A model generated the notes under the pieces. It searched no databases. It had not been told where the DNA came from and was given only the letters and a program-made list of their open reading frames with translations. Source: Oikopleura dioica (lineage: Eukaryota; Animalia; Chordata). Taken from it: 64,000 bases of DNA. Position 1 is the first letter of the stretch; each line of letters starts with the position of its first letter. The translations under genes were made by a program, and so were the position numbers. Positions 1-21,880 of this stretch are shown here, piece by piece. The DNA is taken from positions 1,922,001 through 1,986,000 of the forward strand of contig OU015566.1 of assembly GCA_907165135.1 (NCBI GenBank), in the 5' to 3' direction.

Positions 1-2352
1 AATAAAGCTAATTAGCTTTGTATTTCCACCAACGAAAAAGAATAAAACGGAGATAAGAGTCGGAAAAAGAACGACCATGTCGTATCTTTCTCCTACCCAA
101 GAATAGATTTTCAACTTATAAAAATCCTTCAAATATTTGAGCTTTTTGCGATAAGCCGCCAGAAGAGAAGGATTACTTCCTTGTCCAGCTTCTTTCTTTT
201 TGTTTTCATCTTCGATCAGCTTTTCATAATGTTGAACACCTTGAAATATACAACCAGGAATCAGACTCTCCATTTTCTTCTGAAGTATGAGAAGGTAATT
301 GATAAATTCTGTAAGCATTATTAAAGATCCTTCGACTTCATCCGTTTTACGCACAAAGCACTCGCGTTCACCATTACTGGTGACAGTCGCCAATGTTGCT
401 AATTTATGATATTTATCTCCAGTAGAAAAGCCATTGCAATTCATTGTGCACTCAATATCATAAACAACGAAGTATTCTTGCACATAATCAAATGCAGGCA
501 AGAATTTTTCAGCAACTAGCTCGTGCACGTGATCCATGATTCGGTAAGATTCGACAGTCTGATGAATTATATCAATGGTGTCCATGTTACAGGTTGATTC
601 GTGTTTTTTCATTTTACGCTTATCGGCATGGGTATACAGACAATTTGGCGTTTTACACTTTGGAAGTTCGACGACCATGCGATCAGGCAAAACTCGAACA
701 AGAGTTTGATCATTGAAGACATTTGGTATTAGAGTAAGAACGTTTCGTATTGGCATGTATTCTGCGTAAAGCGACGATTCGACGCTATCGTGAGTGCTTT
801 GCGCCCGTGGAATTGAGTCGTTGTTTTCATCTGAAGAATCACTTTCATGAGCAGGCTCTGGCAACAAATCGTCGGTATCGTAATTAAGCAAATCGTCATT
901 TGTATGCAAGGAAGACGAAGTATCCTCGCCATTTTTCGATACTGCACATTGGTTATCAACAAATGGATTTCGCGCTTGACTCTTTTCTGAACTTGCATTT
1001 TCAGTCAATTTATCAAAATCAACAAAAGATAAATCGTCATCATTTGTTTCCATCGCAGCTGTTTCCATAGCAGTTGTACCTTCGAGTTCTTGCAAATCTT
1101 CCTCATCGCTTTGCAATACTTCTGTTGCATCGTGTAAGTTGTGTTTGTGATTTTTTGTCCAACGCAAAATTTGAGCTGTCTTCTTCTTACCCAGATATCT
1201 TGAACATTTACTGTAACGTCGTTGAAAATCTTTATTCGCGGCGTAAAGTGGTAGCAGACCAGGATAATTATCAAATTCCCTGTACGTTAGATTTGTAAGC
1301 CGTTTGAATTCGTTTGCAAACTCATCCTCTTGCATGGGCGCCGCTAGAATATTCATATTGATACAATCCGAATTCCCCATCGCTGCGTAAACGCACCGCT
1401 TCAAATTAACGTTGTCGTTTATAATTTTTCCAACAAAAAGGCGAATGTTGACTTTGTATTTGTTTCTTATTTTCTGGAAAATGCCATCTGCAATCGAAAA
1501 TTGTTTATCTGCGTAAGCTTCGCCAAACAGCTCCTTTTTTATCTCCGCAATTTTGACATTATACTCGCGTAGATGTAGTTTAGGCCACCGTACTTTTATC
1601 AACGCGTGCCAAATACTTACCCAGTTTTTATCTCGATCTTCAAAAGTACGCCTAGTTGGCAAAAGATGAAATGTTCCAAGACGCCAAAAATAAGGTCGCG
1701 CGCTTTGCAGAACAACGCAGGGTCGAGTTGACATTGGATTGACGGACTCTAATCTGCCAATAACTTGTTCAACATTTTCGCGGTCACCAACTCGATGAGG
1801 TCGATAACTAATACCAAGAGGGCGAAAATAGCCTCCATACAAAGCGTAAATATCAATGTCCAAGAAACGCTCTAACTTTGGTAAATCTGCTCTCGTCGGC
1901 GACAAACCAAACTTTTCCACTAGTTCGCTAGAATCCACTTTTGAAAGCTCTTCGCGCAGTTCTTGGTTTAATTTTGTAGGAATTTTCGGGTGTATTTTTT
2001 TAAGATAGTTCCACCAGTTGATCCCCAAAAGAATCGTATCGTACACATTCGAGCGATTACGCTCATCGTCAGGATTTGCAGGAGAATAATCATCGCTAGA
2101 ACTACTGGACGTACGAGTTCGATTTCCATTTGACTTATTGTTGTCATCAGAACTTTCATCGCTCTCCAAAGGATCCGGTCTCTGACGAGGCCTTTTAACT
2201 ACATCATCTAATTCACTATCATCGCTGTCATCTGCTAAAAAAGAGCTTTCTGCAGTTCGTTGACTGTTTGCCGAAGCTAACAAATGCCTTCGTTTTTTTT
2301 GATAATTTGTTTTTGATAAACCTTTTGCTTTATTTGGAAGAAAACGCTTCAT
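1..2352 (-). CDS. polB: Protein-primed family B DNA polymerase, N-terminal 784 aa (terminal-protein region plus exonuclease); 3' end lies outside the window
   Basis: Manual translation from ATG at 2352 stays open to base 1; it is absent from the ORF track, probably because it has no stop in the window. Contains CKTPNCLYTHADKRKMKKHESTC, ExoI YFVVYDIECT and ExoII-like KIYSWVGERYDMVVLF. Confidence 0.85.
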   Translation of the reverse strand, partial: MKRFLPNKAKGLSKTNYQKKRRHLLASANSQRTAESSFLADDSDDSELDDVVKRPRQRPDPLESDESSDDNNKSNGNRTRTSSSSSDDYSPANPDDERNRSNVYDTILLGINWWNYLKKIHPKIPTKLNQELREELSKVDSSELVEKFGLSPTRADLPKLERFLDIDIYALYGGYFRPLGISYRPHRVGDRENVEQVIGRLESVNPMSTRPCVVLQSARPYFWRLGTFHLLPTRRTFEDRDKNWVSIWHALIKVRWPKLHLREYNVKIAEIKKELFGEAYADKQFSIADGIFQKIRNKYKVNIRLFVGKIINDNVNLKRCVYAAMGNSDCINMNILAAPMQEDEFANEFKRLTNLTYREFDNYPGLLPLYAANKDFQRRYSKCSRYLGKKKTAQILRWTKNHKHNLHDATEVLQSDEEDLQELEGTTAMETAAMETNDDDLSFVDFDKLTENASSEKSQARNPFVDNQCAVSKNGEDTSSSLHTNDDLLNYDTDDLLPEPAHESDSSDENNDSIPRAQSTHDSVESSLYAEYMPIRNVLTLIPNVFNDQTLVRVLPDRMVVELPKCKTPNCLYTHADKRKMKKHESTCNMDTIDIIHQTVESYRIMDHVHELVAEKFLPAFDYVQEYFVVYDIECTMNCNGFSTGDKYHKLATLATVTSNGERECFVRKTDEVEGSLIMLTEFINYLLILQKKMESLIPGCIFQGVQHYEKLIEDENKKKEAGQGSNPSLLAAYRKKLKYLKDFYKLKIYSWVGERYDMVVLFPTLISVLFFFVGGNTKLISFI

Positions 2353-2758
2353 TAAACAAGAGTTTACACAAGATTTATTCGCAGTTAGCGTTATATAGAA
2401 TAAATGTCAGCAGAGAGTAGAACGCTCAAGGAGAACGTTGGATTAACTCGCAGCGCCTTTTGTGGAGTCGCTAACGCGACATTTTAGACCTCTTGGATGG
2501 AGGTGCTCGTCCGATTTGTTCCGTATTATCTAGATGAATTGAAGGAGTTTGATTATCAGGAGTTGCCTTGCACATCACACTTGATCTTGAAATCACAGAA
2601 GCTTCTAAAATATTGTTAATACAGTTATTTTATAACGCAAAACCAACCATTTCTTGACGCGTCCAAAATTAAATTATCCACCGGAAATCGCATGATGAAC
2701 GGAGCCCAACCCTTTGTTAAAGGAGCTCTGAATGTTATTCGGATTTGAACTGTTCCCA

Positions 2759-4347
2759 TCATATCTCGGCGATCGCCAAAATAAATGGGAACAAACCAGT
2801 TTTGGTTACAAAACTGAAAAAATCAAGGCCTTCCCCTACAGTTTTATTTGCGTAGCGGCCATTATGGCGGAGAAAATTAAGGTAATGATCTTGAGCAGAA
2901 TTCCATGGAGTACCATGAGCGTGCTCGTTATCGACTAGAATTTCGAATTGCTCAATCTCAAACCCTTCCTCGAAAAGAGACGTTTTAGTAATACATCTAT
3001 CGAAAGCTGGAGTTTTACGAGCCTCGCTCATTCCCGTGAAAATCAACATGTCTGGAAATAATCCCCGAGAACATTCGACGATATACGTTCGATACCCCGG
3101 GGCCCAGGTTCCAACGCATAATCGAGGATGGTAAAAGGGGATCTTTGCCTGTCTTTTACCGATAATAAACGGTCGTTCATCTTTTGTTGGAGTGCAAAAA
3201 ACACTCTCAAATTGTAAGTGTCGAAGCATATCCGTAGTTATCGTGAAATCTGTACCCGTTTTCGCCCAAAATATAACATACGCTGTTTCATTTTCTACCA
3301 TCTTATCATACTTTGGAACTTTTCGAAAGATCTTGTGAGCCCTCCACGTACTTGATACTGCTTGAGTGTTAGTTTTTGCATTAGCAGGAGTACCTTTATT
3401 GTACAGCTCTTTGCGTTGATTTTCAGGTAAATACGCGCCACCAATAGGTTCTATTTGGAGATATTCAGGAGCAATATCCTCATCGGAGCTTGTAAACTTA
3501 GAATCAGAACAGTCACACGATGCTTCTGTTAAATGCTCCACCCATTCGCTCACCAATTGAATATTCTTGTTGAACGGATAGGTCATTTTAGTGCCTATAA
3601 CTTTTCCCCGATCGTCTTTCTGGTAGATATTTTTTCCAAAGTCCTAAGCTTTTGATATTCAGTCCATTTCATTGCCATCCGTTTAGGCGTTTCCGATATA
3701 TCCACTCCAGTTTGAGTAAGAAGCTCAAACTTAACTCTTGAATCTGCAGGTAAAACTCTTTGTTGTCTCGCCAATCCGTGGCTAATCGGCGATCTAACAA
3801 GATATCGATGATACAGTATTTCACAACTGATAGCTTTTTGATTTGTTGAAATTTCTATAGGTTTGTCCATTTCCTTCCATTCTTCCATTGCGTATTGCTG
3901 CCGATTTTCTACAAGATTGTAACCATTATGCTTACATGTTAATGCGAGCAATTCGTCGGCGTCCGCGTCGTAGGAATCGTAGTGACCTTCTGGAAATAAT
4001 TCAACCTCCTGAGCTTTTGGCGAGTAATTGAGTTTTTTAACGAAATTGTTAAAAAATAAGTACTCCAAGCCATTGGTCCACGTTGAGAAAATACACTCAT
4101 CCAAAATATAGAAGTTGAGTTTATCGATGATCTTTGACGCGAAACCGTTATCAGGGACGAAATTTGAAGGCATCTTTAATTGAAACAAAATTGCGCATCT
4201 GTCCAGTTTAATTGGTAATTTATCAGGAGGCATTGCAAAAGTTATTTTCCCATTACCAGAAGAGAAGTCGCCAAGTGTGTGGAGAACTTTATATCCTGCA
4301 TAGGGATCGGGATTCTTTTGGCTTTTTGTAGTAGAGTAGATTTCCAT
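2759..4347 (-). CDS. Polinton PY-like major capsid protein (double jelly-roll), split into two frames (3595-4347 and 2759-3586)
   Basis: N-half DNGFASKIIDKLNFYI...LNYSPKAQEVELFPEGHYD and SPISHGLARQQRVLP, and C-half AKIPFYHPR...GLFPDMLIFTGM, match from memory the pattern of Polinton PY capsids. The second frame is open back to about 3644. Confidence 0.7.
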
Positions 4348-4406
4348 AGTTTTCTTCCATCGTTAAAACTAAAATTTTATTACAATAAATTGTGAACAAA
4401 TAACAT

Positions 4407-4826
4407 CTAGCCTAAAAGATCGCTTAATTTATGTTTTGTAAGCAACGGTATCATAACCCCTAATTTAAATGATATTATGTTTAAGTGAGCATATATGAGT
4501 GAAACTAAAAGGAGCTGGGTAAAAACAATCGCGATTAAAATAATTAAAAATATGTTTTTCTTCAGTGTAGACATGTAGCATTCAGAGCATTTGGCGCACT
4601 TTGACGAGACGTCGTTCATGTTCGTCGCCTTCTTCGACGCTTTCTCCGTTTTCGATTTGGTCTTCGTCGTCGCCTCAATCGGCGAGTTCGAGGAGCTCGC
4701 CGTCGTCTTCGCGGTCGCCGTCGCCGTCTCTTTTGACGAGTTGAAGGTGCAGCTAGAACCAAATTTCGTAGTCGTGATAATCGTGGTTTTACAAGATAAG
4801 ATCTGCTTGTCATCTGAACAAAACAA
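4407..4826 (-). CDS. Small Thr/Ser/Lys-rich protein with a C-terminal transmembrane helix
   Basis: 139 aa ORF with hydrophobic stretch IFLIILIAIVFTQLLLVSLIY; it fills the gap between the integrase and capsid genes. Confidence 0.45.
   Translation of the reverse strand: MFCSDDKQILSCKTTIITTTKFGSSCTFNSSKETATATAKTTASSSNSPIEATTKTKSKTEKASKKATNMNDVSSKCAKCSECYMSTLKKNIFLIILIAIVFTQLLLVSLIYAHLNIISFKLGVMIPLLTKHKLSDLLG
4616..4813 (-). CDS. Protamine-like Arg-rich peptide (candidate virion core protein), overlapping 4407-4826 in another frame
   Basis: 65 aa with 32 Arg arranged in blocks such as RRRRRPRRRRR. Confidence 0.4.
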   Translation of the reverse strand: MTSRSYLVKPRLSRLRNLVLAAPSTRQKRRRRRPRRRRRAPRTRRLRRRRRPNRKRRKRRRRRRT

Positions 4827-4836
4827 ATAAGAATTT

Positions 4837-6801
4837 TTACTGTTGACGTAAACGTCTTTGTTTCAATTCAGAAAGAGTCATAACTAGGTTTAATTCCTTT
4901 TCATAATAACGCCTGTCTAATTTGACGCCTTTAGAATTTATGAGAGTAAACGTAAACACTTTAGCTCCGTGATGAATTTGATAAATTTGGAAAAGCTCGG
5001 TAGACCACTTAGGTGTAAAACCTTTTTCGAAGCGTTTTATATTTTTGCGAGGAATCCTAACAACATCTCCAACATGAAGCTTACTCCACGTTTGACGATA
5101 TTGCTTAGATCGTTTTGATTCTAAGTAGTCAAATAGCTGGCGGGCGTTATAACGATTTACATCAGCTGGTTTAACGTTGGTAGATGAATGCACAGTATTA
5201 TTAATAGCAGTGTTCACAGATTGTAAAATATGAATCCAACGTTTAACGTTACCCTGACTTGTGAAAGCCCTTCCAAGACGCGCTTCCAAAGTTTTACTAA
5301 AATAGAATATTATTTTGTTACAGTTAATTTTAAAAACTTACTTGAAACGCTCGACAATCGCAGCTTTATGGGGGCCCGTATTAAACACTCGAGTCATCCC
5401 CCACTTTGCCAGCAGCGCTGGCACTTCTTGCTGAAATTCTGATCCTTGATCCGTCACGAAGAAAGTGTGTCCGGGCAAGTCTAGGGTTTGAAAAATAGAT
5501 TCAAGATTGCTCGCTAATTCTCCGGCTTCTTTAGTTACTAGTTTACGAACAAAGCTCTGTCTTGATAAAGCGTCAACAACGCAAAGTATATACTTATAAT
5601 TATTGTTGAATTCTCCATAGTTTTTATAAGCTAGAATAGTATCAGCAAAGAGGCATGAGTATAAATCAGTTGCTATAATAGGATTACGTGAGAAATTTCT
5701 ATGAAGCGGCTTATGGAGAGAAATAGATTCATTCATGCGTTTAAAACGATCAACATTAAGACCACTGTAAAATGAAGGTTGTTTAGGGTTATAAAATAAA
5801 TCTAGCGTATATGGGGGTTTATTAGCGGGACCAGAAATTGGCGGTGGATTCGAGAACTGGCTCGTCGTCTTCGTTGTTGTCTGCGGTGTCTGAAGAGACC
5901 CCGTCATTCTCGCTGTATTCGGGAGAGTTTTTCCTTCGTTTTGCAGGGGCTCGTTTTGTTGAAATTGTGTTATTAGTTCTACCCCTTTTTCGGGATCTGG
6001 AAACCGGTTCAGATTTTTCAGGCTGCTTTGGTTTTCGAACTGTAATAACTCGCCCCGCGGGAGCCCGGTTTTTTTCAGTCTTTCGCTTGTTAAAGTTGTA
6101 CGCGGGGTTCTCGACAATGACGGAGAGCTCTCTTGAATTTCTTGGATTTTTTCTTCCATTCCCGGCGTTTCGTTGGTCATTATCATCGGTCGAGTATTGA
6201 GAGTCGTCGGCGCTTTTCGAATCGGTTCTGGTTGAAACGCTTTCATCTCCATCGGTGAAGTCGGAAACTTGCTCACTATCAGTTCCTGAGGGAACTTCAA
6301 TTCGCCTGTTTTTGGATTTCTTGCTGCGATGAGTTGCGTCATAAATTGAATTCCTGAATTTTCTGAAATCATCGCTGGTGATAGTATAGCCATCGTCGTT
6401 TGCTCGCCTTTTTCTTCGTACTTCTTTAGGCGCTTCAATTCTTCCTCGTTTACGCCTCGTAACTGATTGACTTTCTTCGATACTGTCTTTGTCCATTGAT
6501 CCAGCTCTCCGCCTTTTGCGACCAGTTGATTTGACATTGCGGCGTCTGGAGGGTTTTGAGTAGTCGTCGCTGATTTCGGATTCAAAGTCATCATAGTTGT
6601 TTGCTCCGTTAAGGGTTGTTTCACCTTCCGCGGGCGGCCACGTTTTCTCTTCAAAGGTGGATTCGGGCTCACTGGCTTCCTCGCTTCTGTCTCGAGGCGC
6701 TTGACCTCTAATTCGTCGAGACCGTCTAGCCTGTCCTCGAGGTATTTTCCGGTTGCAAAGTCCCGCAAGTAGCTGGGCTGTACCCTCTTCCTCGGTATCA
6801 T
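4837..6801 (-). CDS. Polinton retroviral-like (RVE) integrase, two exons (intron 5297-5341); start at 6801 or at internal ATG 5907
   Basis: FYNPKQPSFYSG; catalytic D-D-E in LFADT, VTDQGSEF and IVERF. Removing the 45 nt GTAAGT..TTTTAG intron restores VERFNKTLEARL. The C-terminal GDVVRI...KWSTELFQI segment is typical. Confidence 0.9.
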
Positions 6802-6961
6802 AATCGGGATAAGGCTCTGCTTTCGTTTTCGGAGCCCGAACTCTCACTCTATTAGTCAGGGGGTTAATTTCCCAAAAGGAGCAAATATTTAACATTTGCG
6901 ACAGTGAAAAATAACAGCCACCATTCAAGGGTATTTTATTCAGGTCAATTTGATTAGCCAT
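5822..6961 (-). CDS. Hypothetical low-complexity protein with alternating basic and acidic blocks, overlapping the integrase reading frame
   Basis: 379 aa ORF with several NLS-like clusters (RKRRR, RRKRR, KRRK). Confidence 0.6.
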   Translation of the reverse strand: MANQIDLNKIPLNGGCYFSLSQMLNICSFWEINPLTNRVRVRAPKTKAEPYPDYDTEEEGTAQLLAGLCNRKIPRGQARRSRRIRGQAPRDRSEEASEPESTFEEKTWPPAEGETTLNGANNYDDFESEISDDYSKPSRRRNVKSTGRKRRRAGSMDKDSIEESQSVTRRKRGRIEAPKEVRRKRRANDDGYTITSDDFRKFRNSIYDATHRSKKSKNRRIEVPSGTDSEQVSDFTDGDESVSTRTDSKSADDSQYSTDDNDQRNAGNGRKNPRNSRELSVIVENPAYNFNKRKTEKNRAPAGRVITVRKPKQPEKSEPVSRSRKRGRTNNTISTKRAPAKRRKNSPEYSENDGVSSDTADNNEDDEPVLESTANFWSR

Positions 6962-7215
6962 TTCTTTAAAAATAAAGCGTTACACTCATGCTCACAAAAT
7001 CATAAAATCATTCCAAATCAACATTCAAAAATTCACGCATAAATACCTGATTAATTGGTTTTCTTCTTTTGCTGTTACTTTAAAAAGAACAATTATAAGA
7101 TTAAAGAAAAGTTGATACGGTATCCGGTTTTATACGCGCGGCGCGAGCGCCCCTTAGTGTTAACATGAAATTTGGACTATAAAAACGCTCGACAGTATTT
7201 CAAAACGCCAGAACA

Positions 7216-7602
7216 ATGGACGAGTTAGCAAAAAGAGCTGAATCCTTAACCAAAGTCAAAATTGACAACTTGAACGTCCAATCTTGGATAAGCGGTGGAA
7301 CTTACAAGGTCACCGGAAAAATCAAAAAGTTTGACCTTGGAGATATAAAATTTCCAGGCCAAGAGAAATTGGAGACAAATCGCGACGCTTTTTTCCACTT
7401 CAACCCAAGAAATTGGAATCAAGAAGAGCCCGAAATCAGAAACTACTTCAACGAGCCGACTGGTCTTCTTACTGACCTTCAGGACAAAACACTCGTCGTC
7501 TGTATCAACGGATACACGCCAGCAGACGCAAACGCGCCAACTTACCAAGGAAAGATTCCTGGCCAATTCGAAGTCGCTTTCGTAAAATGCATCAACATTT
7601 AA
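7216..7602 (+). CDS. Hypothetical 128 aa element protein
   Basis: Clean ATG ORF, divergent from 6961; its stop overlaps the ATPase start. Confidence 0.6.
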   Translation: MDELAKRAESLTKVKIDNLNVQSWISGGTYKVTGKIKKFDLGDIKFPGQEKLETNRDAFFHFNPRNWNQEEPEIRNYFNEPTGLLTDLQDKTLVVCINGYTPADANAPTYQGKIPGQFEVAFVKCINI

Positions 7603-8327
7603 CGAAATTCGTCCCCGACTTTCGCTTCCGTCACCCCTGTTCACTGCTTATTGCGGGCTCGACAGGCACAGGTAAAAGTAACTTCGTAAAAAATTTAATC
7701 GAGTGTGACGGAATCAACGGCGAAATTGAATCTATTTATTATTTTATGCCACGACTAGAGCCTCTTCATATTACGCCCCATAGTCATCAGCAACTATATT
7801 TAATGGAAGGACTTCCCTCGCAAGAGTGGGTCGATGACACTTTCCAAATTGAAGCAGATAGTAAAAGCCTTATAGTGGTTGATGATTTATGGTCATCATC
7901 GGTCGAAAGTAACACTTGCGAATATTTACTGTCATACGGGCGTAGACATTTAGGTGTCTCGTTAGCCTTTATAGCCCAGAATTTTTACGAAAAGGGCAAA
8001 AAAGCTATTACTGCCAGGTTTGTTTTATTATTCGTGTTTTTTATTTCATATCTAACACTTTATTTTAGGAATTGCATGACAAGTTTTGTGCTAATGAACA
8101 ATCACACTGACTGCGGCATTAACAAAACGATTGCAACCAAGTGTGGCCTGGTCGAGCCTTACAATCAAGCAATGAAACTTTTTAAAGAAAGAAGAATCCC
8201 CAATTACAACTACGTCATCCTCCAACGGGACGTCCGACACGCGGATCAACCTCGAGTAATTACGAATTATTTCGGGGAGGTGGCTGGGCTGGGTGGTGCA
8301 CCATGGATGTTTGGCCTGTCACAGTAA
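7587..8327 (+). CDS. A32/FtsK-like genome packaging ATPase with an in-frame 51 nt intron (8018-8068)
   Basis: RFRHPCSLLIAGSTGTGKS (Walker A), LIVVDDL (Walker B), GRRHLGVSLAFIAQNFY. The T-rich GT..TTTTAG insert interrupts ITAR/NCMT. Confidence 0.9.
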   Translation: MHQHLTKFVPDFRFRHPCSLLIAGSTGTGKSNFVKNLIECDGINGEIESIYYFMPRLEPLHITPHSHQQLYLMEGLPSQEWVDDTFQIEADSKSLIVVDDLWSSSVESNTCEYLLSYGRRHLGVSLAFIAQNFYEKGKKAITARFVLLFVFFISYLTLYFRNCMTSFVLMNNHTDCGINKTIATKCGLVEPYNQAMKLFKERRIPNYNYVILQRDVRHADQPRVITNYFGEVAGLGGAPWMFGLSQ

Positions 8328-8395
8328 ATTTGCAATATAAATTTATTGATTTCTGACATGAATAAAAAAACTACATAAAAATACAAGGCATTTCT

Positions 8396-9331
8396 TTATG
8401 TTCGCAAATTCTTTCGTCGCATTCCTCTTTTGCGCAGCAACATTTTTCTTCCGCTAAATAGTTTCGAAAATGCAGGGGAAACGAGTTGTGTTCGAGCGCA
8501 GGAGTTGACCCTTGATAAAAAGTAATCAATCATCAATATAAAAAACTTACATTTACTATTTAAAAGAGAAATCCATTTTTCTCCAAGTTCTTTGTTGTCT
8601 CCAAAATACTGACCCTGATCGCGTTGAAGAAACATTTTCGCAGTAACATAATAAAAATGAGTCGTAACTTTGTCCATTTCCGATACCATATATTCGCAAG
8701 GAGCCATCTGAGCCGCGCGACAAAGGGAATAAACACGCTCATCAATCTTTTTCTTATCTGACGAGTACTTTGGATTCTTTTCCATAAGCCCTCTCGCCCA
8801 AACTTGCGCGTACAAAACATACAACGCTTTTTCGCATAAAAAAGCCTTTCCAAATAAATTCAGATTTCGAAAAAATATGTTGAGATTTGGATGTTTATGG
8901 CATTGAACAGTACATGTTAGCTTTTTATTTTCATAGACAAATTCTCGCTTGACCAAACCATTCCGTAATTTTTTATACCCCAAGCAATAAGTAGCGCCTT
9001 CTTCGGGTTGATCGTTCAAAAACTCCTTGACAGTTTTCTTTTTATTTTTAACTAATTCGTTCGGCGATGAGTGAATATTTGAAGACGGTCCGGGAGAGAT
9101 GCACTCCTCCACCTGTCTAATAACCAATGACGAAGATTTGATCCCAGTCCTTTCATCGATGTTTTCTTTCACAAAAAACGTTATTTTTGACGACGCGTGA
9201 GTAACCGCACTGCATAAAAACTCATAAAGAATAGGTTGACTGCTTTGAAAGCGATTCTGATGAGTAACAACAACTCCAACATCGTACTGATACAATTTAT
9301 CTCGAGTAAACTCTTCATAAATTTTCTTCAT
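8396..9331 (-). CDS. Hypothetical element protein, paralog family A, copy 1
   Basis: 311 aa; shares VLY(A/G)Q(V/L)WAR(G/S)L(M/L)EK(N/D)P and REFVY with 9636-10538. Confidence 0.7.
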   Translation of the reverse strand: MKKIYEEFTRDKLYQYDVGVVVTHQNRFQSSQPILYEFLCSAVTHASSKITFFVKENIDERTGIKSSSLVIRQVEECISPGPSSNIHSSPNELVKNKKKTVKEFLNDQPEEGATYCLGYKKLRNGLVKREFVYENKKLTCTVQCHKHPNLNIFFRNLNLFGKAFLCEKALYVLYAQVWARGLMEKNPKYSSDKKKIDERVYSLCRAAQMAPCEYMVSEMDKVTTHFYYVTAKMFLQRDQGQYFGDNKELGEKWISLLNSKCKFFILMIDYFLSRVNSCARTQLVSPAFSKLFSGRKMLLRKRGMRRKNLRT

Positions 9332-9635
9332 AACTTTTTATCAAATAAAACAGGAGAAATATTTTATTGAGCACAGCGCGCAAGAGCTTTTAAAGAGTGA
9401 TCGATTAGTTCTTCTTCAATCTACGAATGTAGCGCCATATTTTTCTAATTGTGCCTATACAAATTGACCATATCGTACCATTCACGCTCTATAATAAAAG
9501 ATGTAGGCCTCTGCTGAGTTAAGGCAGTTTTCCTGAAGATATTGTATTTTCGAATTTCTCGTCGGGGAACGTAAGAATCGGACGCGATTTCATGCTCTTC
9601 GTTATCTGGGAGAAAGAACGGGTGGAACTAAATCG

Positions 9636-10538
9636 TTATTGAAGCGTTGAAAAAAGAAAGCTTACAAAAGTATAGCCGCATGTCAACGCTTTTTCTTCTA
9701 ACTCTTGAATGTATGTTCGAAATCTTTGCTTGCTTCCAAACCAAGGCATGAAAGAATATACGCCTCCGAAATAATATTCCATTCTACTGCGGGAAAATCT
9801 GAAGTAGCTTCCATACACTAATCTACAGATTGAAATATGGTAGAGGAATTCGTCTTGTGTCCCTAATTCAGGATAAATTTCATCTTGAGGAATACCAACG
9901 TCTTTCAAAAGACGCTCTATGAAAAAGTTGATAGCTTGTATGTCAGGTTGATCGTCTGAAGTTTGAAAACGCGGATCCTTCTCCAACAAAGAACGAGCCC
10001 AGAGTTGCCCATATAAAACGATAAGTATTCGAAACGGGTACTCACAATTTCTGCCAGGGTTTAATGAGAAAAAAACCTCTTTCAAACATGGATAAATTAT
10101 CTTCTGAACGCTGCAAAAAATCGTTTCCGAGACGCTGCGATCATAGACGAACTCGCGTTGGACCTTGCACATGTGTTCCATAACGCCGCGGCGACCGAAG
10201 TTCACTCCAAAAGATCCACTTTTGGTCAATCCATAAGAAGTCATTGATGGTAAGTTATCGTATATCTTATTCAAGTGCATCTGATGAACGCAGAAAGACG
10301 GAGAGTACTCAATCAACCATTCGTGCTGTCGAACAACGACTCTGTTCTCTATTTTATTTGATTCCGTATTAAAATAACTTTCAATAAAGAAGGAAATTCG
10401 TTGTAACTTTTTAAAAAATCCCATAGATTTGACTGATTGAAGTATCGGATTGTGGCATTGACGGTTAGAATTCTCAAGCTTGAAACATGGAAAATCCAGT
10501 TTTACATCTTCAAAAAACTCCAGGCTTTTTATCAACAT
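9636..10538 (-). CDS. Hypothetical element protein, paralog family A, copy 2 (possibly with a further spliced 3' exon near 9445-9628)
   Basis: 300 aa ORF with the same motifs as 8396-9331; GTAAGC donor-like site near the ORF end. Confidence 0.7.
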   Translation of the reverse strand: MLIKSLEFFEDVKLDFPCFKLENSNRQCHNPILQSVKSMGFFKKLQRISFFIESYFNTESNKIENRVVVRQHEWLIEYSPSFCVHQMHLNKIYDNLPSMTSYGLTKSGSFGVNFGRRGVMEHMCKVQREFVYDRSVSETIFCSVQKIIYPCLKEVFFSLNPGRNCEYPFRILIVLYGQLWARSLLEKDPRFQTSDDQPDIQAINFFIERLLKDVGIPQDEIYPELGTQDEFLYHISICRLVYGSYFRFSRSRMEYYFGGVYSFMPWFGSKQRFRTYIQELEEKALTCGYTFVSFLFSTLQ

Positions 10539-10758
10539 TTTGCGAAATGATTGTTAGTAAAAATGAAAAGAACTTCAACTCAGACACTCCCCTCGGGCGC
10601 CACTTTTTTCTTAAGCGCTCAACTTTTTACTTTTGCTGGAAGTTATGGTAAATTGAAAAGATGTCTCAATTGAAAATCGCGCCTTTTTCAAAAATATTCA
10701 TGATAAATCGAAATAGGGTATAAATAGCCGAGCGAAACCCAAACGCCACCAATCATTC

Positions 10759-11168
10759 ATGATGGCCGACCTGACTGAAGAGGAGCGAAACGCTTACGAA
10801 GATCAATATACCAGGGGTTTACGGAAGATGCGCGACTTTCGAGTATACACAAAACACTTTGTGGACGAAATCGATTGTCTCGTATCAATCTGGCCCGAAA
10901 AAGTGATTTTAGAGGAGCGAAACGTACCCGAGGTAAGCGACAAAAATGTTCAATTTTGTTTATTTTTAAGCAATGCAAACGACTAGACGACATGAAAACA
11001 ATGCTCGATCAGAAAATGTGGAAAGACGCTGATAAGCGACCTGACGACATCGGCAAAAAAGTGCAAAACATACGAAAACTCATGCAAGACCTTGAAAACA
11101 CTCTCAAAATCCACTTTCCCGCTGCAGTTGATCGCTACTATCTCAACTTGATAAACACTTCTTTTTAG
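10759..11168 (+). CDS. Small helical element protein, paralog family B, copy 1; join(10759..10932,10971..11168)
   Basis: A 38 nt GTAAGC..TTTAAG intron joins NVPE/QCKRL; ends DLENTLKIHFPAAVDRYY. Confidence 0.75.
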
Positions 11169-11272
11169 TTATTTTTGTTACTTTCACAACTGATCTTTTC
11201 TAAATTCCTGCATGCTTTCGATTTTTAGTTCAATAAATAGGCAAATTAAAAAATTTCATCAAGTTTTTAAAG

Positions 11273-11685
11273 ATGCGCGAACTCACACAACACGAAATAA
11301 CCGCTTATCGCCAAAAAATAGCGCAAGACCTCCATCAAATGCAAACGTTCACCAACATATCAAGAATGTTTGTCAACACTGTACGGCTGACTTATATCTG
11401 CGCAAGTGATGAGATGATGCTACTTGAGCACTGGATTCCTGATGTAAGTAAATCTTTCTTAGATTTCTATAAAATAGGATTTAGCACTGCCGGCGACTGA
11501 CCAAAATCAAAAAACTCTTGAACGAACCCCTTTGGAAAGCGGCCCTTCTTGGGGGCAATAAATACGAAAAACCGACTCGAAAAGCGATAAAAATGGTCCA
11601 CGACCTCGAAAAAACACTCCACATCCACTACAGAGTAGCCGTTGAACGATACTATTTCACATCCATAGACACTCCTTTCGACTAG
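11273..11685 (+). CDS. Small helical element protein, paralog family B, copy 2; join(11273..11443,11485..11685)
   Basis: A 41 nt GTAAGT..TTTAG intron joins WIPD/HCRRL; ends DLEKTLHIHYRVAVERYY. AATAAA follows downstream. Confidence 0.75.
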
Positions 11686-11812
11686 CCTCTAGTAATACTG
11701 CTTCTAATCAAACCGCTACTTTCGACAATAAATACACACAATTTCTAGAAATAAATGTTTTTATTTGCAGCTCATAACAAGCGCACAGATTTGTCTTTCT
11801 TGCAGGCAAGAT

Positions 11813-12879
11813 TTATTCGTCTTGCTCGTCGGCCTCTTTTTCCCACTGGGGGCCGTCGACATTCCAGCTTCTTCCGCTTCGTGTAAGGAATGTAACTCGA
11901 CAGCGGCCGCTCAGGAGATCGCTCCAAAAGACGCCAAATCGCCGTTCGAATTCGGCTTCCAATTCGGCCGCTTTTTCCGCCAGAATTTCGCGGTCGTCCA
12001 CGTTCAAATACTGGCCAAGCAGACGTACTACCAATTGAATTGGTAACTCTTCGTTATGGTCGGCCTGATCGCGAGGAGACTGTTTGAAGGTCTCTCCTAA
12101 GAAAATTTTAACGTAAAATAAACGAAAAAAACTTACGTCGTCCTCGGACCATTGAGCCGACAATCTTCTTCGCACTCTTTTTGCCGGGCGTTTTACGGCC
12201 AGGCGTTTTCTTGGCGGGCGTCTTTCGGGACGGGGTTTTCTTTCCAGGGGTAAGAGCTTTTCGGAAAGCTTTACCTGGGTTTCGCGCAGCCTCGTCGAGA
12301 CTGTTGAAGATTTCATTCATCCCTCGGTGGAAGGCTGGACCCACACCGCCAGTCTCACCAAATCGTGCGCCACGTCTTGGCCCTTGACGAGGTTCCTCGA
12401 TATCAGTCGGCTCCTCGCTTGAAGGACCAGCCTTGCCTTGCTGCTTTCGTTGAGAAAGCCGATTGAACAAATCGCGTCGGTTTTCCTCCGCCAGAGGCTC
12501 GTCTCGTAGCACCGCGGCTTGACGACAAATTTCCCGGTGCTGCGCCTCCAGTTGCTCCTCCTGAATGCGAGATCGCTGTTCAAGAGGATTGGAACGTTTC
12601 CTCATGGACCCAAGCTCGGTATATTTGACAAACCCTCTCTGGTCTTCCGCATCGGACATGTCAAAGTCAGAAGGCTCGCTTGACGCCGAAGATGAATCTT
12701 CTTCGCCAAAAAGCTCGAGACGAGTTGCCCGAAGATGACGCTCAGCCGCCCGAAGATTGGACTCCAACCGGGAAAAACGAGTAGTTAGAGATCTAGTTCG
12801 CTAGAAAATCAAGTAAGTTACCGCCCCCGAATAAATTTAGCCCATTATTGCAGAAATAACGCCGATTATGACTTACCAT
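11813..12879 (-). CDS. 316 aa element protein with TP-basic repeats and a C-terminal histone H3-like segment; join(12877..12879,12137..12800,11813..12096)
   Basis: ATG/GTAAGT first exon, then 76 nt and 40 nt GT-AG introns that keep the frame. Contains TPGKKTPSRKTPAKKTPGRKTPGKK followed by LPIQLVVRLLGQYL...RVTF. Confidence 0.7.
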
Positions 12880-13175
12880 TTTGACGAAAAACGCACTTTT
12901 GACGTTTCCTTGACTGCTTGAAAAGACAAACTGACCATTTTGGCCAATTTTTCAAAACATAAGGAGCTGTTCTAGAGACGCGGTTTTCGCCGAAAAACAA
13001 CGGTATCTCTAGAAAATCACGTTCGAGAGATTTTCCGCCTAAACCACCCTTGCCGTAAATGTCAACAACATTCAACGCTTCTTTTTACTTCCTTCCGCCC
13101 AGGTGTAAAGCGCTTTAAATTCAGCGGTGAATTTACTTTGACGTCCTTTACTTCGATAAAAGTACAAGCAATAAA

Positions 13176-13711
13176 ATGACTGACGGTTTTAAAATGAATA
13201 TCCCCGCACAATCTAGCGAAGACTCGTGCTCAGCGGACGAGTGCGATCAACAACGAACGCCATTTATCCCTCAAATCCAAATGAGCCACGACGAATATAT
13301 TCAGAAATGCGAAGAACTTATCGGTGACGGGCAAAAAAGTTCGAGCCCTTCTTAGGATATCGCCTGTGGAAAGTTGTTGGTGGTGAAAACTTTTATATTC
13401 CAGCGCCAACTCTTGCCGAAATTATCAAACGAAAGAATCTCAAAGTCCCGAAAAAGTTGCGAGACAGAATTCGATCTGGCGTATCTTTTGATAACTTTAC
13501 GATCATGATCAACAAGCGAGATTATAATTATTTTGGATCATATCCTAATAATGACCCCAACCTAATGCTACTTCGACGAGAGTTACGAACAACTACCAAA
13601 ATGCGCGACCAAGAAGAGAACAAGGCAGCTCGGAGACTTCAAGGAGTTTTTGGAGACGAATCCTCTGAAAGCGAGAATGAAGACGAAAAGAAGCCTGAAG
13701 ACGGAAAGTAA
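13176..13711 (+). CDS. Hypothetical element protein; join(13176..13323,13356..13711)
   Basis: A 32 nt GT..CTTAG intron joins two otherwise separate frames into one ORF ending in an acidic tail, followed by AATAAA. Confidence 0.55.
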
Positions 13712-14143
13712 TTTCTTTTTATCAACATTCTGTTAGACAAACAAATCAAAAAATAAAAAGAATACTTTATATCATTGTTGATTTCAATATTTTTTTGACA
13801 AGGCAAAAGTATCAAATTCTACAGTAAATTGAGCTTGAAATCTAAATATATTCAGTTTTATTTGATGAATGCATGTTATTTCTGAGAAGCGCTTTGATTA
13901 AAATAAATTTATATGAATCCTTGATCAAAAGTAATTAATCAAAATAATAACACTAATTGAGATTATTATCGAGATTAATAACATCCAGATGGTCATAAAT
14001 GAAACCAAGTCCAGGTGAGAAAAATCTGCTTGCATAAACAGCTGGAAAGTCTACATATAAGCGGTCGAAAATTCCAGAGTTATCAAAATCAAAAAAAACT
14101 AAATTTTCAGAAAAAGAAGAACGAAGAAAGAAGAAAGAAGAAG

Positions 14144-14365
14144 ATGATGGACATTTTCAAGTATGGAATTGCCTCTTTTGCTCTCTTGGCTCTTTTCACT
14201 GCATTTGTAATTACTGCATTCTGGATCACCCTTGCCTATCACATCTTCTGGATCATCATCTTTGCGACACTTCTGCGAACTCTAGTTGTACACTGCAAAA
14301 AAGCATCCACTGTCACTGTAAATAACTCAGCTGAACTGCAAATAGTAACTGTACATAACATATAA
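14144..14365 (+). CDS. Small membrane protein (about 73 aa)
   Basis: MMDIFKYGIASFALLALFTAFVITAFWITLAYHIFWIIIFATLL; AATAAA about 20 nt after the stop. Confidence 0.5.
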   Translation: MMDIFKYGIASFALLALFTAFVITAFWITLAYHIFWIIIFATLLRTLVVHCKKASTVTVNNSAELQIVTVHNI

Positions 14366-14481
14366 TCACCCATTCATTCCTGCAAATAAATATAATTTGC
14401 AAAATTCGAAATTAAAGAGTTTATTTTAAAAAAGTTTTTCAAGAAAACGCGATTGTGCAGTATATGATTGATCATAAAGTT

Positions 14482-15320
14482 TCATTTTGTATTTTTATTA
14501 AGAACGTAATTAATTTTCTAACAAAAGACGAAAAGCGAAATACTTTTTGCTATCATTTTATAATTCGAATGTACATAAGAATAAATGAGACAGACAGTTT
14601 TGATTCATTTTATTTTAAGATCTCTGCGATTACTGCACAGGTTTCGTTCCTTGAGACTCATTTTATTTCGATAACATTACTCTATTCATAATTTAATTGC
14701 ATAAAGTTTCATTTTCAAGAAGTCATATACCACGCAAATTGCATTGATAGAGATTCATTTTATTTTAATTAATATATAGAATGTTTTTACTTATCGTAGA
14801 CTACATTAGATTTATCAGAAATTTTTTAGTTTCATTTAAAGAAAGAAAGTCTATTTGATTATTTAAAAGCCATCAGAAAATTAGCATCATTTTAAGAAAA
14901 TAGTTCGACATTATCTAGGCACAAACAAAAATTTAGAATTCATTTTAATATACGAAATAAATCCAGTATTTCATTAACAGAAGCGGAAATCTTTACGTTT
15001 CATTTTATTTTTATGGTCAAGTTTTATCCGAAAACTAAGAAAAATAAAGAAAGCATTTTATGATAATTTTAACGTTATTGGAGAACCTTCCAAAGGATTT
15101 CAATGCGCTTTAGATTTAACATTTTATATGACAAGTAAGCTTTCCGGTAAATCTTCTGATCTTCGTTCGGCTTCAGTATTCATTTTATTTTTTTCTAAAA
15201 ACCCCATTTAATGATCGTTGTAATCATGGAAGACTTACTTTTTTTGTATTTTATTTTCTCTCAATTGAGCGCCGTTGTAGTGGCATCGCTCTTAAATTTC
15301 AGGAAGTTGCAGCTCATTTT
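14482..15320. repeat. AT-rich degenerate array of TCATTTT(AT) motifs
   Basis: Exact TCATTTT at 14482, 14553, 14605, 14658, 14709, 14755, 14887, 14940, 15000, 15180 and 15314. Confidence 0.7.
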
Positions 15321-16190
15321 AAAAAATCATATTTTTAATAGACAATAAAACTCTTTCGCGATTTCATTATTGCAGCTCAGGATGCATTTTTAAAATTATG
15401 AAGTAGGCTCTTAGCTTCGTGGTTAAATATGGAAAAAATCAGGCTATGAAATCGGTTCCTGCTGAGAATTCTAAAGTAAAAATGAAAAATACGGGCCATC
15501 GTATTTGAAGGGGAAGCTAACGCCATCGATTCATCGACTTTTACTTCCAAGAGCGCGAGAAAAAGAGCGCTGGATATTGAACCGATTTTAAGTTTTATTA
15601 AGGGGTTGATGCTTGCGTCAATAAAGCGACTTGATTTTTTACAGTTCCATTTATTCAAATAGAAGGGGGTTTATTTATTGATAGGTTCATTCAGACTGAA
15701 AAAGGGATTACGGTTTTCGGAGGCAGTGAGAATAGACTAAGCTGAGCGATCGTGCGCGAGGGTCGTGATAATCAGTGGCAGTGAGAGTGATCGGGGCGCT
15801 GGAGCAGCTGGGCGGCGGAGGCGGCGGCTGAGCTGGTGGAGAGAGCCTGAATGGATCAATGAATAGAAAGTTCGAGAATGAGTAGAACGTGCCGAAGCTT
15901 CTAGAGCCCGATGAGTAAGCGAGAAGGCGGATCGATGCGGGACAATGGCGGGGCTAATCCATGGGCGTGGATCCGCGCGGCAATTGGCGCGTTGGTATTG
16001 GAGCGCTGGGTCGAGCGGGCGAAGAGAATTGGTGCAGAGGGGCCCGAGTTAGCGAAATTACTTTGTTGAAGGGTTTAGTTCTAAGGGTTAGAGTTAAGTT
16101 TAGAGTAATGTAAAAAGATAGGCGGGTTCAGTAGCGTTAGAATAGTGGGGTAGTGCGTTTAAAATAATTTTTATTTTTAAATAGGCGAAA

Positions 16191-16476
16191 ATAGTAGTGA
16201 CTGACCATTTGAACAAGTAAAAAATCGCTGTGTGGAGTGGAGAAAAAAATCACGCCGCCCTATAGTGTGTGTTGGTGCCATGCATGTAATGCAAGTGGTG
16301 CAGCACCTTGGTGGTGGCGTAAAATGCTTTCATTTGGAGTCTGATGAGTGTCAAGAAGGCCCTGAGGGGCCTTCCCCCCGCACTGAGCCGTGAGCCTTCC
16401 GGTTCAGTGCTACATCGCTCGCACCCAATCAACACACAGAAAAATTATCAAATGGTCAGTCACTACTATAACTACT
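16191..16476. repeat. Element terminus with a 22 bp internal inverted copy of the end sequence
   Basis: ATAGTAGTGACTGACCATTTGA (16191-16212) is the exact reverse complement of 16448-16469. Confidence 0.85.
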
Positions 16477-16644
16477 AACATGTGCTTGAAGGTTCTAGAA
16501 ACTCTCATCCTCCATCCGTCAGGAAATAAGCGGATTTTCCTGACGAATGGAGGATACAAGAATTTTCCTGACGAAAGGAGGGTCACCCAGGAATCCTAGT
16601 TATTTCTATAAAAAATTTTTATCAAACGATTTTAGGGAGAAGTC

Positions 16645-17858
16645 GTGGATGAAGAATATGTCGAAGAAAGAGAATGTCCATCAGACAACGAAGGGTCTAC
16701 CCTATCATCCAGCTGTTCGCACATTTCCGAGCGTCTCTGCGACGGGTATCCGTATCACGACTACCTCTACGAATACAAAACGGAGCCAGATTCTGACGTG
16801 GTCGATCAAAGGCCGCATCCAAAAGCATCCGACGTTCTTGGAATCAAGATCGAACCTGGCTTGAGCTATTCCGAAAAAGAGAAAATGTACCACAAGCTGA
16901 TTCGAATCCGCGGTATGGGGCCCGTCTACCCGCCGAATTTGACGAAATTGCAGCGGCATACGCGCACGGTCGAGCATCAATTGCTGGTTGATGATTTGCT
17001 CGAAGAGTTGCAGTTCAAAGCGCCCTTTCGGGAAACAGACGCGAATAGACGAAAATGTAGGGAATACAAGGCTATCGTAGAAAAGGTGAGTTATTATGAG
17101 ATATCTTGCATAAAATTGTTCAAAAGTCATGATCATCAACCGTTTTATCTTCGTTTTTCCTAAGAAATAACCTTTGACTTTAGATTTATCAAAAGGAACG
17201 CGCTTCTGCAGCTCCTATTCCCGACTTGAGCCTCAAATCCGATTCCGATGATGAAGACAGCCAAACTCCCTCCTCTTCTCAATCCATTCCTTCATCCTCC
17301 ACTGCCGCCAATTCCAAATCTCGGCCCAAGAATCTCCTTCCGCCTCGTTCCTCCACGATTGTCGTTCCCGGTCCGCCAGTCCCAGTCATGCTTCCGAACG
17401 GTTTCGCCCCGCGATTTGAAGAAACGCGACTTCAATACGCACCCGAGATGGCTCCAAAGACAGTGACGCGGACAATCTACGAATGCACAATCTGCACTCG
17501 CCAATTCAACTCATTGACGCAGCTCAACTTGCACCTTCGAAAGCACCCGAAGAAATGCAACAAATGCGGACTCAAATTCAAGCGCTTTGACGAGGTTCAG
17601 AAACACGCGCCTTACTGTATGCGGGCTAATGGATTGTAAGTCATGAATTGTGGGTTTTTGATCATAAAACTTCTTCTTAGAATTGTTATTCCTCGACGAA
17701 AATTGAAAGAAAAGCCCAAACCGCCTCCTCGACCGATCAGATGGAGAGTCTGCATCCTTTGCGAGGAAAAGTTCTTGACGGACAAGCGACTCTACTGGCA
17801 CCAAGTAAAGCGATGCGAGAAACGATACGTCTCCGACTCCTGGGTCGTCAAGATCTAA
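16645..17858 (+). CDS. Host C2H2 zinc-finger protein; join(16645..17085,17184..17635,17681..17858)
   Basis: YECTICTRQFNSLTQLNLHLRKH, CNKCGLKF...H and CILCEEKF...H; GT-AG introns keep the frame. Confidence 0.8.
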
Positions 17859-17994
17859 CTGTAAAAACAACTGTAGCAGATTTGAAAATTTTCACTCACG
17901 CAACTTTTATCCTCATTTTACTTCACTCATTGGCTTAAAATAAAATGAAGCTATGCAAGCAATTTGCCAAGCTTTTGAAATTTGAAATTTTGAT

Positions 17995-21829: not shown

Positions 21830-21880
21830 AATGAAGCTATGCAAGCAATTTGCCAAGCTTTTGAAATTTGAAATTTTGAT

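Follow-up and report, generated by a model that had tools for sequence, protein, structure and literature searches.

The window analysed here, a 64,000-nt stretch of Oikopleura dioica DNA, contains one end of an integrated Polinton/Maverick, in which the genes for the integrase and the packaging ATPase are each interrupted by a short GT-AG segment. We consider it highly probable (roughly 0.8) that the two segments are spliceosomal introns at sites common to diverged relatives, which the host would need to remove for working enzymes to be made. The case is built from sequence comparison with these relatives.

One end of a Polinton/Maverick

The visible gene set includes the start of a gene for a protein-primed family B polymerase (pPolB), a capsid gene (double jelly-roll, via a homologue), an rve integrase, an A32/FtsK-type ATPase and accessory genes, and it closes with an AGTAGT-type terminus at 16476, the core genes and the end motif being hallmarks of Polintons/Mavericks (Table 1). 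Both the terminus and the AACATG that follows it are present as stated in the initial annotation. No partner to this terminus was found within the 64,000 nt, and the far end lies outside the window. The pPolB ORF is 78% identical over 403 columns to residues 403-788 of P0046, the later part of which matches PF03175 (DNA_pol_B_2, E 3.5e-14); the visible part has no Pfam match of its own, the polymerase core being outside the window. For the minor capsid protein and the cysteine protease, no Pfam match was obtained among the 23 ORFs scanned in this element, which is cut by the window edge. The named relatives are all from Oikopleura dioica, with gene models P0016, P0051, P0052 and P0088 as homologues. 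Elsewhere in the window (39089-40249) there is a chitinase gene with 34-47% identity to 76 long proteins (over 679 aa); the best matches reach 45-47%, and no Oikopleura protein is among the 76.

Table 1. Features of the element, with positions in the window
Feature	Position	Strand	Basis or remark
pPolB, N-terminal 784 codons, runs off window edge	1..2352	-	open frame, no intron in visible part
Major capsid protein gene, intronless; changes of frame at about 4320, 3630 and 2810	2625..4360	-	homologue mapping
Arginine-rich ORF, 65 aa, 48% R; ATG directly after T-rich CAG	4616..4813	-	composition; no Pfam match
Integrase exon 2	4837..5296	-	aligned to continuous distant integrases
Putative integrase intron, 45 nt, phase 2, just after VERF motif; in-frame stop if retained	5297..5341	-	homology and splice signals
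Integrase exon 1, long N-terminal extension	5342..6801	-	rve match and homologues
Charged ORF, ~380 aa, overlapping integrase N-terminal extension in other frame	5822..6961	-	L001 counterpart
Candidate 5´ UTR intron, 83 nt, below TATA box	6964..7046	-	L001 counterpart
Predicted gene, 128 aa	7216..7602	+	134-aa ORF at same place in L001
Packaging ATPase exon 1, with both Walker motifs (A, B)	7587..8017	+	Pox_A32 match
Putative ATPase intron (51 nt, phase 2), stop-free when retained	8018..8068	+	homologue signature and L001
ATPase exon 2	8069..8327	+	conserved in L001 and P0016
orfA, candidate 40-nt intron 8511-8550	8371..9337	-	splice signals only
orfB, candidate 38-nt intron 9628-9665	9445..10538	-	splice signals only
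Tandem paralogue 1, putative intron 10933-10970 (38 nt, phase 0)	10759..11168	+	alignment to paralogue 2
Tandem paralogue 2, putative intron 11444-11484 (41 nt, phase 0)	11273..11685	+	same intron position as paralogue 1
orfC: lone ATG, candidate 76-nt intron 12801-12876, exon, candidate 40-nt phase-1 intron 12097-12136, exon	11813..12879	-	signals only
orfD in two frames; 32-nt segment 13324-13355, doubtful intron	13176..13711	+	composition and A run
Element terminus, AGTAGT-type end motif	16471..16476	-	motif per vertebrate Mavericks (PMC8097293)
Putative 6-bp target-site duplication AACATG, one side only	16477..16482	+	adjoins terminus

Putative introns at shared sites in the integrase and ATPase genes

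Exon 1 of the integrase matches rve with an E value of 2.6e-5, which falls short of the Pfam cut-off, and is 52-59% identical to six close homologues, with an N-terminus common to P0022 and P0025. The full-length integrase aligns to canonical rve-chromo integrases (E 2e-35), and distant continuous integrases span the junction with a 15-residue gap at the intron. All six of the close integrases end in K or M plus a stop at the intron site, and all 11 distant ones continue through ERFN. The integrases that stop form one side of a 100/100 branch in a tree that was midpoint-rooted, so that a single gain is not proven by it (P0028, P0030, P0043 and P0044 were left out as near-duplicates).

For the ATPase, exon 1 matches Pox_A32 with 23.6 bits (cut-off 22.8) and has 20 homologues, relatives being 51-78% identical. 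Fourteen of them end exactly at the intron codon, and four continue with Y, as would be expected if reading runs into a phase-2 GT. The other two are a 764-bp contig that diverges earlier and the O. dioica model P0016, which crosses the junction as predicted. The phase-2 GT signature is thus seen at this site in 18 of the 19 ORF-called homologues. Exon 2 is 51% identical to the spliced model P0016, starting from residue 91 of the latter. P0016 and P0051 do not amount to RNA proof, given that P0051, also a predicted model, connects the donor of the integrase with the capsid gene. The ATPase intron in the window could be partly retained in transcripts, as its length is a multiple of three, it lacks a stop and its donor, GTTTGT, is weaker.

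One scan of metagenome contigs gave no match; another, over 1 of 64 parts, returned at least five loci, and among the matches listed only L001 is a true relative; it is also the sole relative read as DNA, the others being judged from where their protein records end. L001 carries GT-AG segments of 46 nt (integrase) and 44 nt (ATPase) at the same two sites, neither a multiple of three and both with stops. The intron interiors of the window and L001 resemble each other no better than shuffled sequence does: the observed match was reached by 223 (integrase) and 498 (ATPase) of 500 shuffles. Exon 2 is 52% identical over 62 aa in the integrase and 67% identical in the ATPase, with differences by codon position of 23/16/38 and 23/15/49, respectively, richest at position 3. 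In L001, the second exons of the two genes come after a stop and in another frame, yet are conserved. The initial annotation had looked to relatives without the segments as evidence against introns; the close relatives have them. Its suggestion of an intron-adapted lineage holds for these two genes, whose introns appear old, are inherited across diverged relatives and match host introns in size. That the element's genes were "colonised" by introns, however, is overstated, as no intron is present in the capsid gene or in the 784 pPolB codons within view.

The capsid gene in this copy and in the lineage

We found 36 homologues of the capsid protein. Eighteen are full-length (536-620 aa) and continuous, and 17 of these map to three or four frame segments in the window. 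The full-length proteins are 28-52% identical to P0048 (one 91%) and are open, with invariant residues. P0048, which is 49% identical to the window capsid in the N-terminal half, has a predicted fold (pLDDT 79) with the mavirus MCP as its best PDB match (E 3.8e-10, TM 0.44/0.49); the fold resembles the mavirus, Sputnik and iridovirus MCPs, with BFVD matches at 7-11% identity. By way of this homologue, the predicted structure assigns the lineage's capsid to the double jelly-roll class. Introns were ruled out as the cause of the frame changes, since the homologues leave no intron-sized insert. Going by composition only, the arginine-rich ORF is a possible DNA-condensing core protein.

All four frame breaks seen in the element are ≤20 nt from A/T runs of 5-6, and 9-25% of pPolB windows drawn at random contain such a run. 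The two copies of a 3.8-kb duplication in the window differ by one indel and no mismatch, and therefore indel noise exists in the window. The interrupted capsid frame reflects either decay or long-read assembly error.

One reading of this is that the lineage is now a transposon only, with the capsid gene on its way out and the introns a sign of domestication to the genome rather than of a nuclear virus. The clustering of this copy's breaks in the capsid gene and the lack of relatives found among viral contigs fit such a course, but the 18 full-length capsid homologues are open with invariant residues and both exons of the packaging ATPase are conserved, a pattern not easily accounted for in the absence of particles. 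We therefore regard it as unlikely. Because a double jelly-roll capsid gene is kept open, the lineage is probably able, now or formerly, to form particles, and at the level of the lineage an active virus may exist.

Less likely again is the initial annotation's idea in its strong form, with this copy an active and intact nuclear virus. Open frames are seen in its pPolB (784 codons), integrase and ATPase genes, its terminus is sharp and the position of the four breaks near A/T runs is as expected from long-read errors, of the kind that the indel in the duplication attests. Against this, the capsid gene changes frame three times within 1.73 kb, compared with 0.23-0.45 expected from indel noise (P 0.002-0.011), and there are none in the ~5 kb of pPolB, integrase and ATPase genes (P about 0.017 if uniform). 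Pattern scans of IMG/VR viral contigs, which have limited sensitivity, also gave no relative, only two weak P-loop-only matches. The proposal of an active nuclear virus is thus unsupported for a copy whose capsid frame is broken three times, and the viral-contig scans and RNA reads gave no sign of particles, free copies or transcripts. Intactness of its virion genes was likewise not confirmed: the capsid lies in three or four frames, and no minor capsid protein or protease was identified in the visible part.

Short GT-AG segments across the element

We see very little chance that the integrase and ATPase segments are non-spliced insertions or decay, with the truncated ORFs (a 144-aa ATPase and an integrase ending at VERF) being real genes or relics. 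Databases do list truncated products, but the position-3 bias of exon 2, even where it stands out of frame in L001, the retention of GT and AG while lengths differ (45/46 and 51/44) and the alignment of continuous distant integrases across the junction all speak against it.

The initial annotation reported seven segments in six genes. All are present at the lengths reported, with GT...AG ends, and six have an A+T content of 0.62-0.84 and donors GTAAG or GTTTG. The seventh, of 32 nt, is doubtful as an intron; its donor is GTGACG, its A+T content of 0.50 (0.61 in the flanks) does not fit, and it could equally well be due to a frame break where six A residues stand in a row. We also noted three more candidates, in orfA, orfB and the 5´ UTR. 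Except for the composition of the 32-nt segment, GT-AG ends and host-like size and composition, as in U2-type introns, were found throughout. Host introns delimited in the same window measure 39, 41, 41, 45, 45, 48 and 98 nt (6/7 within 39-48), and the O. dioica median is 48-51 nt (PMC8008620). The size of the segments (38-83 nt) argues against self-splicing introns. Strict GTAAG...AG matches in 1-13800 number 9, compared with 4.1 +/- 2.1 in shuffles, and 6 of 300 shuffles reach 9; the chance test from splice signals alone is modest, and the main support for introns comes from homology. RNA reads over 1-14000, a stretch without a host control gene, numbered 2, 2, 1 and 4 in four runs chosen by species label, all <90% alike and none joined; they weigh neither for nor against splicing.

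Position and phase are kept while the interior diverges at the integrase, ATPase and 5´ UTR sites and in the tandem paralogue pair. The alignment of the paralogues covers exon 1 (E 1e-6) as well as exon 2 (39%, E 4e-14), with similarity resuming right after the acceptor. At the place of the 5´ UTR candidate, a GT-AG segment of 68 nt stands in L001, 1-2 nt ahead of the ATG. The charged ORF that follows is 39% identical over 314 columns to its L001 counterpart, and both this frame and that of the integrase are open in both elements; synonymous shuffling leaves an open second frame in 0, 2 and 0 of 2000 cases. For orfC, the 76-nt GT-AG segment behind the lone ATG described earlier is present, and the gene structure is read from splice signals. 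orfA is paralogous to orfB (E 2e-13), for which the ESM Atlas gave no match above 0.78 and no lead. The 128-aa gene matches nothing in the L001 sequence at E 0.01 and has no Pfam match.

A recent burst of introner-type transposon insertions has a precedent in the eupolintoviral proviruses of dinoflagellates, with ~25% of introners in coding regions (PMC12166617), but is most improbable here, where the ten segments lack a common family sequence (only 9-11 nt A/T-rich matches, which can include the donor), orthologous introns are fully diverged and positions are common to relatives at 51-78% identity; this leaves room for an ancient introner origin.

Comparison with known systems

Polinton core genes are usually described as intronless, as the initial annotation noted and as stated in two papers (PMC8097293; bioRxiv 10.1101/2022.07.12.499685). 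In vertebrate Mavericks, introns were not seen in genes belonging to intact elements, intact meaning eight intronless ORFs (Barreat and Katzourakis 2021, PMC8097293). The element here resembles these in its pPolB, integrase, ATPase, MCP and (AGT)2 end motif, and its two facing gene modules are broadly similar; it differs in the inherited introns of the integrase and ATPase and in an integrase that lacks the chromodomain found in distant homologues and overlaps a second ORF at its N-terminus. Caenorhabditis Mavericks have the same core set and introns inside the element, but their core genes are described as free of introns, which occur only in cargo genes that were captured (Widen et al., bioRxiv 10.1101/2022.07.12.499685), whereas here they are in core genes. 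The dinoflagellate elements are likewise Polinton-class proviruses with introns; theirs, however, are intron-generating insertions in recognisable families, while those here appear old and position-conserved. Ginger1 DNA transposons carry 1-4 introns, mostly GT-AG and some of them position-conserved, in genes for an integrase-type transposase, but they move by simple cut-and-paste and have neither a polymerase nor a capsid or ATPase (PMC2836005). Adintoviruses share the animal host, integrase, PolB, double jelly-roll capsid and packaging ATPase (Starrett et al. 2021, PMC8502044). The adintovirus label is tentative here; the capsid homologue is only 7-11% identical to its structural matches, and Pfam gave no OTU match at the pPolB N-terminus, a domain that was detected in adintoviruses by structure-aware search. 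One published list of O. dioica Y-chromosome elements includes a "MAV" class (PMC5240408); no gene-structure description of O. dioica Mavericks was found in the literature searched, a search outside which the primary O. dioica genome paper falls.

Model and implications

In the history that we favor, the integrase and ATPase introns would have been gained once, in the ancestor of a lineage living in appendicularian tunicates. Host RNA polymerase II would transcribe the element in the nucleus, and the short-intron spliceosome of the host would process the transcripts. As Polintons copy DNA to DNA, with no reverse transcription to purge introns, these would stay in place while their interiors drift. 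A further-reaching version, which we hold to be speculative and rather doubtful, is that an appendicularian-specific Polinton lineage which still forms particles has been rebuilt around host RNA processing. Splicing at the two motif sites would gate the integrase and ATPase, as a stage- or tissue-specific switch for integration and packaging, and a single minus-strand transcript would yield individual mRNAs through cis-splicing or SL trans-splicing; it would have a 5´ leader that is spliced, the overprinted pair of ORF and integrase, and acceptor-like sites ahead of the arginine-rich and capsid ATGs.

Polintons occupy a place intermediate between transposons and viruses. Introns are known from both DNA transposons and nuclear DNA viruses, so that as a type the mechanism is nothing new. 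Fixed introns in a Polinton integrase and ATPase nevertheless depart from published descriptions of intronless core genes. They would point to a long nuclear residence of the lineage that depends on the host spliceosome, and they predict a host range limited to cells able to splice 40-50-nt introns. Pipelines that ignore introns list these genes as 144-aa or truncated pieces, and with them elements that are live would be taken for dead. The common intron positions may also serve as a marker for vertical versus horizontal spread, and because an O. dioica-type host can be cultured and has much RNA data, the splicing prediction is directly testable.

Gene order and terminus of the element

By its four core genes and end motif, the element is a Polinton/Maverick, and its workings are like those of one. 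The terminus is an AGTAGT-type motif on the minus strand, and AACATG follows it; no partner repeat is present within the 64-kb window. A perfect inverted 22-bp copy of the subterminal positions 16448-16469 lies at 16191-16212, ~240 bp inside the end. In a Pfam scan, Pox_A32 scored above and rve below the cut-off; protein record P0046, which bears PF03175, matches the pPolB part at 78% identity. Right of the ATPase, genes without assigned function extend to ~14.4 kb and the remainder to the terminus is largely non-coding. For orfA and orfB (8371-10538, minus strand), diverged paralogues (27% over 175 aa), no match was found in Pfam or the Atlas. The public gene model P0046 joins the capsid and pPolB genes, and P0051 the integrase and capsid genes; both fusions are probably gene-prediction artefacts in such elements. 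A C2H2 zinc-finger host gene (16636-17858, plus strand) begins ~160 bp from the element end; an acceptor precedes the first exon visible in the window, so the element may lie within an intron or the 5´ region of this gene. Short MITE-like elements with inverted-repeat ends were also seen at 63485-64000, 57560-57956 and 35679-36001.

Features of the element and the evidence for them (window coordinates)
Feature	Position	Strand	Basis
Polinton/Maverick, one end	1-16476		core genes and end motif
pPolB, N-terminal part	1-2352	-	runs past window edge
Major capsid gene	2625-4360	-	homologues, fold of P0048
Arg-rich ORF, 65 aa	4616-4813	-	between integrase and capsid genes
Integrase	4837-6801	-	rve, homologues
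Integrase intron	5297-5341	-	directly past VERF motif
Second ORF overlapping integrase	5822-6961	-	
5´ UTR intron candidate	6964-7046	-	counterpart in relative L001 (68 nt)
128-aa gene	between integrase/second ORF and ATPase	+	
ATPase	7587-8327	+	Pox_A32
ATPase intron	8018-8068	+	homology to ORF-called relatives and L001

Probable inherited introns in the integrase and ATPase genes

The initial annotation had claimed at least seven short GT-AG introns, and sequence inspection located all seven listed segments as described. Strict splice-signal matches numbered 9, compared to 4.1 ± 2.1 in shuffles (6 of 300 reached 9). Since signals by themselves thus exceed chance only mildly, homology tests were applied.

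The integrase intron follows the VERF motif, whose E is the third catalytic residue. At this site, all six close homologues (52-59%) terminate in K or M plus a stop, and all 11 distant homologues (30-38%) run on through ERFN, with two of the distant proteins showing a 15-residue gap exactly at the intron when aligned to the window. In a midpoint-rooted tree of the exon-1 region, with four near-duplicates left out, a 100/100 branch separates the eight rows that have the site from the rest.

The ATPase intron interrupts the codon of a conserved Arg, which may be the arginine finger. The homologue search spanned proteins of 135-431 aa, and continuous relatives could therefore have turned up. Among the 20 matches, 19 resemble simple ORF calls. 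Of these, the split codon is the exact end of 14, four continue with Y, and one, from a 764-bp contig, departs five residues earlier. R/K followed by a stop, Y or F, seen in 18 of the 19, is the outcome expected from reading into a phase-2 GT. Five of six additional cluster members follow this pattern (the sixth stops before the motif). The twentieth match, an O. dioica gene model at two loci, spans the junction as predicted, with 51% identity in exon 2. Such models are AUGUSTUS calls with RNA hints according to the available part of PMC8008620, so this one is predicted and not proof of splicing.

The strongest evidence short of RNA came from L001, a metagenome contig carrying a diverged relative with the same gene order. 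Its integrase and ATPase introns (46 and 44 nt) have sites and phases identical to those in the window and both contain stops, and the similarity of their interiors to the window's is not above that of shuffles. The downstream exons are 52% (integrase) and 67% (ATPase) identical, with differences concentrated at third codon positions in both. The downstream frame, accessible solely via cuts at GT and AG, thus appears to be under selection, and the inherited introns in the core genes are very likely real.

Putative accessory introns and host introns

Two tandem paralogues share a phase-0 intron position (38 and 41 nt), where the interiors are unrelated and likeness picks up again directly past the acceptor. 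Of the introns claimed initially, those in the integrase, ATPase and paralogue pair are upheld by homology. The two orfC introns (76 and 40 nt) and the candidates at 8511-8550 and 9628-9665 have good donors and acceptors and no homologue, and are called from signals only. The 32-nt segment (13324-13355, plus strand) is doubtful: it has a poor donor, lacks A/T enrichment, and can be explained equally well as a break in frame where a run of A occurs.

Host introns in the chitinase and zinc-finger genes (39, 41, 41, 45, 45, 48 and 98 nt; two supported by gaps versus the duplicated chitinase domain, the others by signals) have ends of the same kinds as the element introns. Intron sizes in the window agree with the O. 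dioica peak of ~47 nt given in the available parts of PMC5240408 and PMC4122922. All taxon-named homologues (P0016, P0051, P0052, P0088) are from O. dioica, and an appendicularian is the likely host. A protein search with the host chitinase, covering records longer than 679 aa, gave 76 matches at 34-47% identity, none named Oikopleura, and so lent this no confirmation. The chitinase gene itself (~36900-41598, plus strand), encoding two GH18 domains with Thr-rich linkers, has several introns in the second domain and none in the first, a case of within-gene intron gain or loss.

Overlapping frames and transcript layout

Over ~975 nt (5822-6801, minus strand), the N-terminal extension of the integrase is overlapped by a charged ORF of 380 aa in another frame. 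Both frames are also open in L001 (730-1598), and the second stayed open in 0, 2 and 0 of 2000 synonymous shuffles; P0026 and P0051 fuse the integrase core to the N-terminus of the second frame. The Arg-rich ORF is protamine-like (48% arginine) and its ATG lies immediately 3´ of a T-rich CAG resembling a trans-splice or leader acceptor, while TTTTAG lies 8 nt upstream of the capsid ATG. Operons and SL trans-splicing both occur in O. dioica (available part of PMC4122922), and with acceptor-like sequences before both ATGs, this layout may point to a single transcript split up by splicing.

The capsid gene

The capsid family was assigned via the predicted fold of a continuous homologue, P0048, rather than the window copy (20-row alignment, pLDDT 79.4); best matches were the MCPs of mavirus, faustovirus, iridovirus and Sputnik. 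All 18 full-length homologues (536-620 aa) are continuous and many are metagenome ORF calls, indicating that the capsid gene is intronless in this lineage. The window copy shifts frame near 4320, 3630 and 2810 without an intron-sized insert, each time close to an A/T run. A 3.8-kb tandem duplication (~17825-21643 and ~21711-25528), either very recent or an assembly artefact, has zero mismatches and one indel. Given the A/T runs and this indel, the breaks could reflect assembly error. Three changes in 1.73 kb exceed the duplication-derived indel noise (P 0.002-0.011), and none occurs in the remaining core genes (~5 kb); the window copy is thus probably capsid-defective. With its capsid frame broken three times, the earlier suggestion of an active virus is unsupported for this copy. 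Viral-contig pattern scans of limited sensitivity (IMG/VR) found no relative.

Comparison with known elements and a possible role for splicing

In the available parts of the sources cited here, intact vertebrate Mavericks have genes without introns (PMC8097293) and Caenorhabditis Mavericks have introns in cargo and none in core genes (bioRxiv 10.1101/2022.07.12.499685), whereas the window element has them in the integrase and ATPase core genes. Cafeteria EMALEs are without introns (PMC8547959), spliceosomal introns go unmentioned in a nematode Polinton survey (PMC10748475), and none of PMC8502044, PMC11296320, PMC11244446, 10.1101/809541 and 10.64898/2026.07.28.741278 gives an example of spliceosomal introns inherited in core genes. 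Precedents include dinoflagellate proviruses with introners (PMC12166617), cryptophyte PLVs with group I introns (PMC12220804) and Ginger1 transposases with introns (PMC2836005). Among the papers covered, the literature search gave no account of Oikopleura Mavericks with introns. The Polinton type itself is known, and what may be new, relative to those papers, is the inherited introns in its core genes. Adenovirus splicing is a further precedent.

Sites, phases, signals and downstream exons are all conserved. We infer that the element would be transcribed in the nucleus by host polymerase II (TATA-like boxes are present upstream) and its introns excised by the host's short-intron spliceosome. 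Each core intron would have been gained once, long ago, and would persist because replication is DNA to DNA. Integrase RNA left unspliced would give a protein terminating right past the catalytic motif, and unspliced ATPase RNA a 144-aa fragment in most relatives. Splicing may thus be a control point for the integrase and ATPase.
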